From: Escherichia coli
GTDB lineage: Bacteria; Pseudomonadota; Gammaproteobacteria; Enterobacterales; Enterobacteriaceae
Assembly (NCBI RefSeq): GCF_003018115.1
Contig: NZ_CP027457.1
DNA: 64,000 bases
Direction: 5' to 3' (one strand)
In this document: positions 33,901-39,900 of the stretch, piece by piece
How positions within the stretch are numbered: position 1 is the first letter of the stretch
Layout of the letters: each line of letters begins with the position of its first letter
Position numbers: made by a program

Positions 33901-36900
33901 ACAAATAATTGTACCAACAGATGGCCATAACCGTGTAAAACCTTCTGAAAACTTCATTAAGGTTGTACCAATGACCTCTGCAAGTATTGCACCACCAAGA
34001 TAAATATAAGGATTCATAGCATATTCTTTCCTGTTCAAACTGGAGAGAATTGTACTACAGTTTGAACTCAACTCACCTGTTTCATCATTGTGTACCCATT
34101 GATGTTCTTTTATATACCCTCAATACCCGTTTCATCGCGGCACTCTGGCGACACTCCTTAAAAATCAAATTCGTGCTCACCTTTCCTTCCCATTCTTCTC
34201 TGGTAGCGAACCGATAATACACCGTTCGCCAGACCTTACCATCAACGACCAGGATTCCTGCCCGCGCCATTTTAGCCGCAGCCTGATTTATGCTGGTTAC
34301 CGTTGCGCCTGTTACCGCGGCAACGTCCTGCGCACAGAATTTCTTATGAGTCCCCAGGTAATGAATAATTGCCTCTTTGCCCGTCATACCCTTGCTCCTT
34401 TCAGCCCAAACTTAGCTTTGATTTCTGCGATCTTCGCCAGAGCCTGTGCACGATTTAGAGGTCTACCGCCCATGACAGGAAGTTGTTTTACTGGTTCAGG
34501 TATAGCCTCACCACGGTTAATTCGTGCGGTCATACAGGACAGTTCATCGGCAGCCTTGCGCCGTAATTCCGCGTCAGTCAACGCATTAGCCCGCATGTTC
34601 TGATACAGGTTGGTAACCAGCCAGTAGTGCGCGTTTGATTTCCACGGATAAGACTCTGCATCCGGATACAGCCCGCGCTTCCGGCAATACTCGTAAACCA
34701 TATCAACCAGCTCGCTGGCGTTTGGCAGCCCGGCGGTAACGGATGCTTCTTCCCGGCACCAGGCGACAAACTGCCCGGGTGATGGCAGGAATGGTCGATT
34801 CTGCCGACGGGCTACGCGCATTCCAGCGTTAACCTGTTCCATTGTGGTGATCCCGTTTTCCCGAAAAGCCAGCACCCACTGGCGGCGGATTTCGTTCAGT
34901 TCATTCTGGTCACGGTTAGCCAGGCTCGCCGGGAAAGTTGCCAGTAACTGGCTGAACACACCGTTGATGATCTGCGCTACCTGCTGTACCTGTGGCTTTT
35001 CGTCGTACTGTTCCGGCATGTTGTTGGCGATCCGACGCATCTGCTCACGGTCAAAGTTAACCATCTGTGCGGCGATGTTTTTCATAGATCCACCCCGTAA
35101 ATCCAGTCAGTGTTTGTCAGGTCGAGTTTTGGTTTGCCGACTGTCACGCCAGCCTGTTGCTTGTTCCGGTTGATTTCGAGCTGGGTCCACTTGTCGCGGA
35201 GTTTGGCCGGACTCAGCACGTTACCGGACCAGAAGTTGTCCTGGCAGGCCCAGCGGAACAGTACACACATGTCGCGGTGGTTACGTCCATCACGTTCACG
35301 CATCAGACGGATATCGTTAGCCCACCCTGCAAAATTCGGTTTTCTGGCTGATGGCGCGATGGTCTTCACCATGTCAAACATCCACTCTGCGGCGGTCAGG
35401 TCTTCTGCTGTCCCCCACTTGCTGCCGCTCTGAATCGCAGCATCCGCTTTCACCACAGGAAGGTCGTTTTCTGGCAGGTCAGAGGATTCGCCAGAATTCT
35501 CGGACGAATAAGGTTTTATATTGTCTTTTGTTAGTTTGTCTTTTGTGTTTACCTGATTCGGGTAAGTGCCTTTACCTGATTTGGGTAAACTTTTCTTACC
35601 TGATTCAGGTAAATTTACCTCTTTCAGGTAAACTTTATTTTTCTTACCTGATTCGGGTAATTTTGACCATTCCCTGACCACATTATTAATGCCGATATTC
35701 CGCCCGCTCTGAATAAAAATCCCACGCTTTACCAGAACACTTTTTGCAGCAGAACACTTGTGCGGCAATATCCCGGTCAACTCGGAAAGTTGCTCGTTGC
35801 TCACCCAATCCAGTTTTTTATTAAAGCCATATGTTTTGCGCATGACAGCCAGGAAGACCAGAAGCTGGTGCTGTGTTAATCCGGCCAGCATTACAGCTTC
35901 CAGCAACTCATTTGCAATGCGCGTATAACCATCATCGAGATCTGCCACGCGCGGCTCCTTTTGTGCCGCATCCGGCACTGGAAAATTGAATATCTCAGCA
36001 GTGTTTGCCATAATTCCTCCCGCAATGAGTGTGTTACGATTTGCACCTGAAAGTCGGTTCTGTTGCCGCAGACCGACTTTCGCCATTTTTGAACCTGTCA
36101 TATTGCCCCCAGCATGGTGGTGACCATCGCCATCAATGGACCAGCCAGATCTGGGTCCACTCGAAACATCGACACAATGCCTTCACTCATCTCCTTCAGT
36201 TTCTGGTGGCGTGGTGCGTTGAGAATGACCGCCTGCTTTGCCTCACTGAGTTCCTTTTCCATTTCAGCCAGCCGAGCCATGAAGCTATCCTGCTCAACCA
36301 GGTGGCCGCGATATTCCAGCGGTAGTACCGCCAGAATTGCCGGGGTCAGTTCACGCACGTTATTTCGGTATTTTTCAGAATCGAATTTGTTATCGAGGAA
36401 GCGGAACAGCTTCTGGCGTGCACGACTGACATCATCAGGAAAATCGATGGTGCCGCCGCCCTGTGCTCGATACTCATTCACAATGAGTGCGGCAACTACA
36501 TCCTGATTATCTTCAGCAGACCAGGCGCGGACGGCATCACGAATTTTTTCGTGGCCTGGCACCTGTTTTATTTGAGAACGATTTATCACCGCAGTCGGGC
36601 TAAATCCGCTAGTCTGTTGGTATGTAAGTGGTTGCATAATCATCGCCTTATCAGTTAACGCCGCAGATTAGGCGGCAGAATTACTCGCGTTAAACAATGG
36701 TGCGAGGTCGGGACGAATATCTGCTGGCTTAATCTTTCCACCAGTGGCTGAGACAATTTTCATTACATAGCGGGCATCAATTCCGCCACCGTGTAGCCAA
36801 CGCCAAACAGTGGGCTGGGCTACACCGCATAGATCTGCCAGTCGTTTTTGACTACCTGTAATACTGATTGCGAGTTGAATGGTTTGATTTGTCATTATCA

Positions 36901-39900
36901 ATTCCTATTGGTATTACAATGAATGGATAATAGCAATGCGTATTAACCATGGCAATAGCAAAACGTGTTTTGACCATCAATACGCAAGCGTATAAATTAA
37001 AACTTATGAAAAAAGAAACTCTTGCTGATCGCTTAAACCTAGCGATGGAACAATCTGGGATGTCTCAAGGCGCTCTTGCAAAGGCGTCTGGCGTAGCTCA
37101 ACCCACAATCTGGAGACTGACAAGCGGCAACGCGCGCGGCTCAACAAAAATTGTTGAAATAGCGAATGCATTGGGTGTTCGAACAGAGTGGCTCTCATCA
37201 GGCATAGGCCCGATGAGAAATGACGGTCAACAATCAGGGAAGCCTACTGTCAACCATTCCAAATACTTCAAGATTGACGTTCTTGATATAGAAGTGAGTG
37301 CCGGGCCGGGAGTCATCAACCGTGAGTTTGTAGAAGTCCTACGCTCGGTTGAGTACTCGTTTGACGATGCTCGTCACATGTTCGATGGCAGGAAGGCGGA
37401 AAATATCCGCATCATTAACGTACGTGGTGACAGCATGTCAGGAACAATCGAACCAGGTGATCTGCTGTTCGTTGATATCACGGTTAAATCTTTCGACGGT
37501 GATGGCATCTATGCGTTTCTGTACGACGACACAGCCCATGTAAAGCGCCTGCAAATGATGAAGGATAAGCTGTTGGTTATCTCTGATAACAAGAGCTACT
37601 CACCGTGGGACCCGATCGAGAAAGACGAGATGAACCGGGTGTTCATTTTTGGGAAAGTCATCGGGAGCATGCCGCAGACCTACAGGAAGCATGGGTAGGT
37701 AGTATGTAAAGAATTACCTTTGGTTGATTTGTAATAGCTACCGATTACGTTATCGGTAGCTATAAGAAATTTTTATGTCTTTAACTGTGTTTATTTATTC
37801 AATACTAGTTGGACTATAGCAATGAAAGATAACAGACAAAAAGTCGTTCATTATAAAAAAGCAGTAATCCCACACAGCAAATCATCATTACAAAACATAC
37901 TACTTAGTATTATAGGTGAGGGCGGCGTTGCAGAAAAAGTACTTAGTAGACAAGAAAAAATAACACCTTCAGATGAAAATTCGGGGTATCGTTTCTTAAA
38001 TAAAAGCGACACATACAAAACTATACTTTTTGGGCAACTGGTTTTATTTGAAAAAGACAAAAGCCAGTCTCTATTAGAGCTTAGTGATAATGTTAAATTT
38101 TATGACATTAACTCCATCACGTCTAATGATATAATTATTGATGGAGATAAACGTAGTGACAAAAAAAGAGAGTTTGTAGATTCAATTTTATATTTTGGTG
38201 TACTAAACAACCATGTCATGATCGTTCAATCCACATCGCTTCGAGCAAGGGAGCTTGAGGCGCATTTGAATTGGCTAATTAATACATTCACAGATGAAAA
38301 AGAATCTGTGTTAATGCTTCAAGATAAGCCATCCGAAGAAACGATGAAAAAAATGGAGAAAGCACCAGCCAAGAGCATAAAAATTGGTGGATTACCCATT
38401 ACTTCAGAAGTTAAAAATTCAGAGAACCAAACACCCTCCTTTTCAAATGGTTCGGTGAAGACAATAAAATACCGCCCAATAGGGAAAGGAGGTGCGCTAC
38501 TAAAAGCATTTTTTGGCGATAACTGGGCAAATGATATAAACATTAAAGATTCATTAGATGAGGCCAATTTACAAGTAAGCCTCGAGATTACATACTTCAG
38601 AAAAACAAATGATAGCGGTCAAGCTGTTATAGACAGTATTGCTACCTCACTACGACATCTAGATGAGGATGATATTAGCATCAAACTTCAAGGCGGTGGG
38701 GAAATAACGGGAAAAGAGATAAAATTATCCGGAAAAATTAGCGTTGAACATAACAATGGCATTATTGATGAAAATGATTTATTCTTAAAAATGCATAAGT
38801 GGCTGTTCTCAAAACTTGATGCCGGAGAATTGGTTGCAAAATAACCTACCAAAAGGAGGGCGATAATGAAATCGAACATCATCCACCTTATTGGTATGTT
38901 GGTCTTCTATTTTGCTGGTTACTTTTTGTTCAAGTTAGCATTGGGCTATATTACACCGGGTGTTGTCCTAACAGCTCCGTGGGCTGTGGTTGGACTCATG
39001 CAATTGCCATTATCATATTGTATACAAGCCATTTTTAAGGCAAATGAGGCCAATGACCACTCGTCTTTAACCCCTAGTGAGGTTAGGCGATTAGTGCCAA
39101 TAGTCAAATCCAAGAGACTGAAATTGGTTTTATTATTAGCTTTCTATGTATTTTCAACTTTGTTTGTAATCTTGGGGTTAATAGCAAGCACAAATGATCA
39201 AGCCCTACTCTTCAGGGTCTTAAAAATTTCAGGTGGATTACTCTTTATTTCTCTCTATACCAGTGTATTCGTTCATAAAATAATGGTTGAGCTTCAAGAG
39301 TTTAAAGCGTTATTAAACCGAAGAGAATCAGAGAAGAAGGAAAGAGAGTCACTCCTTGATAGATTAAAATGACCCCCCCTCCCCGGCCGTCGTGCCGGGT
39401 TTTCTTTTGCCTCCCCTCATCACACACCGTTCAAAAAACCACCATAACCCCCGCTTCAGTTATCGCTATGCGATGCAAGTCACAAAATTAATTCCTTTTG
39501 CTATCAAACAGTTAATATCAAAATACATCAATCAATAGCAATAAGTATTGATATCACCAATAGCAATAGCTATTATTACCATGTCGCAACAACACAACGA
39601 TACGGCAACCACCTGATTCGCCGTTGCGATGACCGCTTAGATCCGCAGCTTGAATTTCAGCAGGCTCCGGGGAGTGCGAGGGGTGAAGCGGACGCGTGAA
39701 CGTCGGTGTGACCAGCTGAAATCAACTCAACACTTCATACCTCAGTCGCTTCAACGAGGCGGCTTAGTTATGACAACCGGCGGCCATCCACCGCCTGAAT
39801 ACGCGCAGAAGTCTCTATATGTTCAGCAGCCCAGCTTACGGGCAGGAGTTTTTATGGTTCATCAACATTACGGAACTCAGACCGTTAATCGCGGTGCCGT

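Follow-up and report, generated by a model that had tools for sequence, protein, structure and literature searches.

The repeated sequences that flank the cI repressor operon of a lambdoid prophage in Escherichia coli (contig NZ_CP027457.1; the whole stretch of 64,000 nucleotides analysed is called the window, and all positions refer to it) are very probably the operator sites of a lambda-type lysis/lysogeny switch, where they would be bound by both cI and Cro. The cI gene (37006-37698, plus strand) encodes a repressor of 230 amino acids with an N-terminal helix-turn-helix (HTH) domain (PF01381, HTH_3) and a C-terminal S24 autopeptidase domain (PF00717, Peptidase_S24). It is transcribed divergently from cro (36668-36895, minus strand), the first gene of the rightward operon, whose product of 75 amino acids is a YdaS-family HTH protein (PF15943 YdaS_toxin, E=9.6e-15) with an additional weak match to P22_Cro. 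The 110-bp region between the two genes carries at least three related dyad sites over divergent predicted promoters, PR and PRM, and a second cluster of the same sites lies over the predicted PL beyond the repressor operon, the distance from OR1 to OL being 2,630 bp. The sites are named according to the lambda convention.

The exact 9-mer CAATAGCAA occurs three times in the window (36953, 39533 and 39558; 0.73 expected), and all the copies are located in the cI/cro intergenic region or directly upstream of the predicted PL. Three or more copies were reached by 5 of 100 shuffled sequences; the count by itself is thus modestly unusual, and the clustering is the significant part. The sequence AATAGCAAT was found without mismatch at 36929, 39534 and 39559. 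With one mismatch allowed it gave 26 matches in the window as against 17.9 expected, which is uninformative, and the dyad pattern described below is far more specific. The OR (36896-37005) and OL (39470-39580) regions have nine 8-mers in common, compared with 1.05 expected; AT-matched segment pairs from the same window were used as the null, and a fraction of 0.001 of them reached nine. The sharing of 7-mers was likewise well above that of AT-matched pairs. The initial annotation, which had claimed motifs common to these two regions, was right on this point; the intervals it had delimited took in OR1, half of OR2, OL2 and OL1, but missed OR3, the OR4 site and OL3/OL4 (see below).

Relatives of the repressor were searched with tblastn using the cI N-terminal domain. 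This domain is 74-76% identical in Klebsiella phages and in the P22-like phages of Salmonella (BTP1, ST104, ST160 and SE1), and 87% identical in ST-29. Dyad-symmetry scans alone gave many competing registers, and the register of the sites was set by comparison with these relatives. The functional pattern proved to be an 18-bp pseudo-palindrome, YAATA-N8-TATTR, of which CAATAGCAA is the left half, so the earlier reading of the motif as an operator half-site stands. Three exact matches to the dyad (36928, 39533 and 39558) were found against 0.20 expected, all of them in OR or OL, and none of 100 shuffles reached this number; when one mismatch is allowed, the dyad appears also at 36978 and 36899. 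The operator consensus is YAATAGCAA-WNSGTATTR, with the arms YAATA and TATTR around eight central bases, and the copies of the repeat stand in a 25-bp register (36929/36954/36979 and 39533/39558).

It could be supposed that the recognition unit is not this dyad but a shorter element, either CAATAGCAA as a direct repeat of 9 bp or the palindrome of 10 bp, AATAGCTATT, found at 39565-39574. The left halves are indeed much better conserved than the right ones, the 9-mer is present in three exact copies, and AATAGCTATT is a perfect palindrome. However, the right arms TATTR show little or no variation between hosts or within populations, a site of the distant relative SaltyDalty (TGATAGCAATTGCTATTG) is a near-perfect palindrome over 18 bp, and AATAGCTATT is replaced by CATTGCTATT in the Klebsiella phage ST11-VIM1phi8.2 and by CAATGCTATT in BTP1. 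HTH repressors with an S24 domain (lambda, 434, P22) bind as dimers, which also speaks against a short unit, and we consider such a unit very improbable. Since AATAGCTATT is not conserved in the relatives, it was rejected as the unit, and the emphasis given to it in the initial annotation has to be withdrawn; it is a by-product of OL1.

The window was scanned with a symmetric weight matrix whose training set consisted solely of sites of the Klebsiella and Salmonella phages. Its top five positions were 36928, 39558, 39533, 36899 and 36978, with OR2 in the 8th (13.8 bits) and the OL4 candidate in the 10th place. The maxima obtained for shuffled sequences had a mean of 13.1 and a highest value of 19.3. 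Matches outside OR and OL (45869, 27150 and others, none above 14.9 bits) are within the shuffled range and were taken as chance.

OR1 (36928-36945, TAATAGCAATGCGTATTA) is an exact dyad with the best matrix score in the window, 24.6 bits, and its arms are invariant in the E. coli, Klebsiella and Salmonella phages. OR2 (36953-36970, CAATAGCAAAACGTGTTT) is 25 bp from both OR1 and OR3. Its two mismatches to the dyad are both in the right arm. Five of the six aligned phages have the site unchanged (the sixth, PhiR30_1, has a central G-to-A change), and the left 13 nucleotides of OR2 are the same as those of the perfect OL2 site of ST-29, TAATAGCAAAACGTATTG. OR3 (36978-36995, CAATACGCAAGCGTATAA), with one mismatch to the dyad and a score of 16.8 bits, the fifth in the window, is kept in the relatives. 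On the other side of the repressor operon, OL1 (39558-39575, CAATAGCAATAGCTATTA; 22.7 bits) and OL2 (39533-39550, CAATAGCAATAAGTATTG; 20.6 bits) are both exact dyads, and the counterparts of OL1 are TAATACTCATTGCTATTA in the Klebsiella phage and TAATACTCAATGCTATTG in BTP1. OL3 (39513-39530, TAATATCAAAATACATCA), 20 bp from OL2, is weak in the window; better counterparts in the same register and with the same 20-bp spacing are TAATAGCCATTGCTATCA in Klebsiella and TAATAACAAAAACCATTA in BTP1.

It is conceivable, but rather doubtful, that each cluster has four sites. The candidate OR4 (36899-36916, CAATTCCTATTGGTATTA) has one mismatch to YAATA-N8-TATTR and is situated downstream of the predicted PR start, over the Shine-Dalgarno sequence of cro. 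It was absent from the training set of the matrix, which placed it fourth among all positions of the window, and it is kept in the Klebsiella phage as CAATTCCTATAAGTATTG. The candidate OL4 (39489-39506, TAATTCCTTTTGCTATCA), upstream of OL3, shares 14 of 18 positions with the OR4 candidate and is a nearly invariant block in the E. coli, Klebsiella and Salmonella phages; its matrix score of 13.3 is not significant alone. Four sites per cluster would allow an eight-site looped complex, and a roadblock to or translational control of cro, which are absent from lambda, and would resemble the four palindromes reported for the CP-933P prophage.

The promoters were predicted by a consensus scan that was run without reference to the sites. 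PR (36927-36955, minus strand) has the -35 hexamer TTGCCA at 36955-36950, a spacer of 17 nucleotides and the -10 hexamer TATTAT at 36932-36927 (10 of 12 consensus matches). PL (39548-39576, plus strand) has TTGATA at 39548-39553, the same spacer length and TATTAT at 39571-39576 (again 10 of 12). PRM (36970-36998, plus strand) has TTGACC at 36970-36975 and TAAATT at 36993-36998, also 17 nucleotides apart. At both PR and PL the O1 site lies over the spacer and 5 bp of the -10 hexamer, and the O2 site extends 3 bp into the -35 hexamer. OR2 abuts the -35 hexamer of PRM, and OR3 is between its -35 and -10 hexamers. The suggestion of the initial annotation that the motifs are operators is borne out in respect of their position, between the divergent cI and YdaS-family cro genes, upstream of the leftward early genes, and over the predicted PR, PRM and PL; the binding itself is what we infer.

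The identical -10 hexamers of PR and PL, their similar spacers and their common geometry could also be explained by common ancestry or duplication of the two promoter cores, in which case the shared sequence would not represent protein-binding operators at all. The 94% identity over 32 bp between OR1 of the window and the OL1 region of the Klebsiella phage, in reverse orientation, can be read in the same way. But the motif recurs at OR3, which belongs to another promoter (PRM), the copies at OR2 and OL2 stand upstream of the promoter cores, and the sites are dyad-symmetric. The -35 hexamers vary in the relatives (TTGCCA, TTGTTA, TTGCTT, TTGCTA) while the dyad arms do not, and in a heteroimmune relative the motif is swapped along with the HTH recognition helices (see below). 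Little credence can thus be given to an origin from the promoter cores, and the operator reading is preferred.

The PRM prediction bears on the start of cI as well. The ATG at 37006 is 7 nucleotides past the -10 hexamer of PRM and has no Shine-Dalgarno sequence, which makes a leaderless cI mRNA probable; the precedents are lambda cI and the paaR2 repressor gene, for which a leaderless transcript was described (PMC8630535). Both the -10 hexamer and this ATG are invariant in the relatives. In several database records (PhiR30_1, BTP1) cI is annotated from an upstream ATG, which in the window is at 36949 and would give a longer open reading frame (ORF). This ATG precedes the predicted PRM and is missing in the Klebsiella and Salmonella relatives, so that the annotation of cI from it is probably wrong. 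The alignment of the cI N-terminus with residues 4-63 of the 434 repressor also supports the start at 37006.

Three OR sites at 25/25 bp and three OL sites at 20/25 bp are kept in ST11-VIM1phi8.2, BTP1 and ST-29, and the spacing is retained in the Klebsiella and Salmonella relatives although the surrounding genes differ. In BTP1 the sole DNA homologous to the window outside cro-cI is an island of 94 bp (39484-39577), which extends from OL4 through the -10 hexamer of PL. A prophage of E. coli O157:H7, whose OL is diverged and whose cargo is a SIR2 gene, still has the perfect dyads CAATACTAATTGCTATTG and CAATAGCCATTGCTATTG 25 bp apart. The distant cI relatives of SaltyDalty and ASU11 (60-69% identical) have the recognition helix core QPTIWR followed by I instead of L, and related dyads, such as the SaltyDalty palindrome mentioned above, are found there 25 bp apart. 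The motifs were conserved in all the related immunity regions examined, as the initial annotation would require.

Variation within the populations was followed in IMG/VR, where 80 loci were collected, all with a cI N-terminus identical to that of the window; this set informs on polymorphism, not on deeper covariation. Comparison column by column was possible for 34 of its 37 distinct OR sequences and for 39 of its 45 distinct OL sequences. Polymorphic columns made up 24 of 40 in the spacers and 30 of 144 in the 18-bp sites (Fisher p=7e-6), a value that is indicative only, since the loci are not phylogenetically independent. In 74 loci the sequence extended far enough downstream for OL to be judged, and 73 of these had the OL1/OL2 pair; its distance to OR1 varies with the cargo (1.45-2.78 kb). 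The cro-OR-cI module was found in 718 of 5,426 complete E. coli genomes (13%), O157:H7 strains included.

The recognition helices are AQPTIWRL in cI and AQPTVWRW in Cro, and the N-terminal domain of cI is 40% identical to Cro over 48 amino acids of the HTH (E=2e-8). The common stretch GVAQPT(I/V)WR reads in full GVAQPTIWRL in cI and GVAQPTVWRW in Cro. Since the two proteins share the HTH and have nearly identical recognition helices, as is known for 434, both can be expected to read the same sites.

The heteroimmune phage IdasGreatGrand shares with the window the flanks of the immunity region (ydaT, the C-terminal domain of cI and the PL leader), and differs from it at 36641-37141 and at OL. 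The recognition helix of its cI is SQAAIQK and that of its Cro SQQAVYK, and both its OR and its OL have ACAAC/GTTGT repeats in place of the motif of the window. The operators therefore covary with the recognition helices while the flanks are shared, and where the helix is unchanged the sites are retained even in phages whose flanks are unrelated. As judged from these comparisons, the joint swap of helix and operator is the classical signature of an immunity-specificity module, in agreement with what had been proposed at first. In about 1,500 additional complete E. coli genomes the match is limited to the S24 half of cI (query positions 587-1041). Since the homology to IdasGreatGrand resumes at 37142, these partial matches indicate that cI contains a recombination joint where the DNA-binding domain meets the cleavage domain, the C-terminal half being 37142-37698.

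The initial annotation had also connected the motifs with YdaS/YdaT-like cro and cII genes. The connection holds for the YdaS-family Cro, and not for YdaT. In BTP1 and the Klebsiella phage a lambda-type CII (PF05269, Phage_CII) accompanies the same operators, cI and Cro, and in IdasGreatGrand YdaT is found with other operators; the operator type is thus not always accompanied by YdaT, and the module is not tied to it. The specificity, as read from these combinations, follows cI and Cro. The YdaT of the window had no sequence match in the PDB, the solved YdaT of CP-933P being too diverged, and the transfer of the YdaT specificity from CP-933P to the window was dropped. The sequence TTGATTTGTCATTATCAA (TTGATT-N6-TATCAA, 36884-36901), located over the start codon of cro, is one mismatch from the CP-933P YdaT operator TTGATT-N6-AATCAA; because of the divergence of the two proteins this match is not interpretable. 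A perfect copy of the CP-933P operator, TTGATTATTGGAAATCAA, occurs at 30694-30711.

The repeats might also be bound by one regulator or by a third factor (Cro alone, YdaT, IHF or Fis), with cI recognising something else. Sites are not assigned to proteins by sequence, the region is rich in A and T, OL4 and OL3 have a match to the IHF consensus between them, and OR2 contains an offset palindrome, CAAAACGTGTTTTG. These sites travel, however, with cI and Cro and not with YdaT, which is replaced by CII in BTP1 and the Klebsiella phage. The recognition helix is common to cI and Cro, the repeat search gave no further repeated dyad common to OR and OL, and a site for a host factor would not be swapped in the heteroimmune relative. 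We regard such a single or third ligand as improbable, although less so than the short recognition unit or the origin from promoter cores, and retain binding by both cI and Cro as the best explanation.

Several observations weigh against this explanation and should be taken together with the dependence among the IMG/VR loci mentioned above. The cI sites are not distinguished from the Cro sites by sequence. OR2 and OL3 fit the dyad poorly, and OL3 is outside the top 25 positions of the matrix. The palindrome within OR2 (36960-36973) is perfect over 14 bp, is 5 bp off the 18-bp register, overlaps the -35 hexamer of PRM and is shared without change by five of the six E. coli, Klebsiella and Salmonella phages in the alignment (PhiR30_1 has a central change); it may mean a different register, or a different protein or second ligand. 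The conservation of the OR4 candidate may come from the cro ribosome-binding site and other translation signals. The alignments of six sequences include three close relatives. The sequence TATCAAACAGTTA (39502-39514, read by eye), which overlaps OL4, matches the IHF consensus WATCAANNNNTTR, possibly by chance; it lies upstream of PL and is present in the Klebsiella phage and not in BTP1. Finally, no paper defining the operators of this immunity type, of BTP1 or of Perceval was found in a literature coverage that is incomplete.

The sites themselves, together with their statistics, their geometry, their conservation and their covariation, are observed here, and from them we infer the order of occupancy, activation and looping as follows. 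Each 18-bp operator would be bound by a cI dimer, and the YdaS-family Cro would bind it as well. Occupation of OR1 and OR2 by cI in the lysogen would block PR, and that of OL1 and OL2 would block PL. Since OR2 abuts the -35 hexamer of PRM, cI bound there could stimulate PRM and hence its own transcript, which also carries both cargo genes. OR3, being in the PRM core, would give negative autoregulation at high cI level and is the probable target through which Cro turns off cI. The OR and OL clusters, 2.63 kb apart, could pair through DNA looping. In the S24 domain the Ala-Gly site, the catalytic serine of GDSM and K180 are conserved, and the GDSM and K180 positions are invariant; on this basis we propose that the switch is SOS-inducible, and RecA-stimulated self-cleavage of the domain would lift repression. 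The operator sequence and the recognition helices of cI and Cro together would define the immunity specificity.

The architecture is that of lambda and, in the divergent arrangement of cI (HTH and S24) and cro, also of 434 and P22 (c2/cro). As in lambda, three pseudo-palindromic sites about 24-25 bp apart are placed over PR and PRM, a second cluster occupies PL at a distance of about 2.6 kb, past cI and the cargo in the position of rexAB, O1 covers the promoter core, O2 is at the -35 hexamer next to PRM, and cI is probably leaderless. The similarity of the recognition helices of cI and Cro, and the alignment of the cI N-terminus, recall 434. The operators, however, are different, being 17-bp TATCACCGC-type sequences in lambda and 14-bp ACAA-N6-TTGT in 434, compared to the 18-bp YAATA-N8-TATTR of the window. 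The Cro of lambda has the lambda Cro fold, while that of the window is a YdaS-family HTH protein; furthermore, the window has YdaT in the place of cII, Kil first after PL with no N gene, and perhaps a fourth site per cluster.

The nearest characterised YdaS/YdaT switch is that of CP-933P (PaaR2/YdaS/YdaT) from E. coli O157:H7. It likewise has a YdaS-type Cro, a YdaT-type cII and a leaderless repressor gene (in the window probably so), 18-bp intergenic palindromes, four in number, over PR and PRM, and, downstream of the operon of the repressor, a PL whose operators are similar (PMC8630535, PMC9986795). There is also cargo behind the repressor, which in CP-933P is a toxin-antitoxin pair. In contrast to the similar architecture, the half-site consensus of CP-933P is GTTTAGTAA (PMC8630535), which is not that of the window (CAATAGCAA or YAATAC); the spacing is equal there and 29/25/25 bp in the window, and the repressor of the window is an S24-type cI. 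The Rac prophage also has YdaS/YdaT homologues beside a divergent repressor and three intergenic inverted repeats (PMC9638921, PMC5700373). The operators of RacR are (T/A)TAGGC-n3-GCCTA(T/A) (PMC9638921), and no repeat of this type was found in the intergenic sequence of the window, where the repressor is an S24-type cI; a further difference is that YdaS was reported not to repress racR (PMC9638921, PMC5700373). The operators of the window thus differ from those of both Rac and CP-933P, and the non-lambda immunity type assumed at the outset can be maintained. BTP1 (with ST104, ST160 and SE1) and ST11-VIM1phi8.2 belong to the same immunity family as the window by helix, YdaS-family Cro, sites and spacings, and they have the same slot for defence cargo behind cI, occupied by BstA in BTP1. 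They differ in the central bases of the sites and in having a lambda-type CII instead of YdaT, and BTP1 has an N gene after PL.

The DNA specificity described here seems not to have been reported before, while the switch itself appears to be of ordinary lambdoid architecture, and the understanding of how such switches work is unchanged by the finding. The operator consensus permits the prediction of homo-immune and hetero-immune prophages. It helps to annotate PR, PRM, PL and the cI start at 37006 instead of the longer ORF. It also shows where to look for cargo, in the slot from cI to OL, which is transcribed together with the repressor gene and holds defence genes in relatives.

The immunity region of the prophage is 98% identical to that of Escherichia phage Perceval. 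Its layout is lambda-like, with cI and the cargo replacing cI-rexA-rexB and with PL directed away from cI. On the minus strand, cro is followed by the YdaT-family cII analogue (36098-36643), O (35082-36101) and P (34384-35085). The two cargo ORFs (37822-38844 and 38866-39372, plus strand), co-oriented with cI, encode a soluble protein of 340 and a predicted membrane protein of 168 amino acids, in the positions of rexA and rexB, and have a low GC content (0.31-0.39). No Pfam or PADLOC match was found for them, and PHROGs gave phrog_3482 and phrog_16807 only, both of unknown function. The same slot holds BstA in BTP1, SIR2 in the O157:H7 prophage, and HipA/HipD and GevT/GevA in PhiR phages. Since known defence genes occupy it in the relatives, the pair is a candidate for an uncharacterised Rex-like defence system. 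The terminator scan located an intrinsic terminator at 39382-39409 (plus strand; a stem of six G-C pairs and then a T run), which closes the cI-cargo operon, and an AT-rich region lies between it and the Kil gene.

The first leftward gene (39770-40060, plus strand), taken as an N-position ORF in the initial annotation, is in fact a Kil homologue (phrog_294, Kil, E=1.4e-36), annotated likewise in Perceval, PhiR30_1 and IdasGreatGrand, and no N homologue was found after PL in the window. Downstream of it are gam, bet and exo. The PL leader of 190 nucleotides before kil (39577-39770) is conserved also in the heteroimmune relatives, and only within this phage group. As a test for put-like or nut-like RNA, the leader was compared with Rfam, without a match at E<=1, and its folding was assessed, with an unremarkable result (z=-0.25). 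An arginine-rich, TTG-initiated frame (MNFSRLRGVRGVKRTRERRCDQ..., ORF 39650-40060) runs into kil, and a stop codon closes it in IdasGreatGrand.

To the right of the replication genes, the segment 31903-34387 resembles the DLP12 prophage of K-12. It contains an EmrE small multidrug transporter (33685-34071) and a RenD-like ORF (34085-34387), both of which are annotated at the matching positions of Perceval, as well as a serine-recombinase-like ORF of 508 amino acids (31903-33429).

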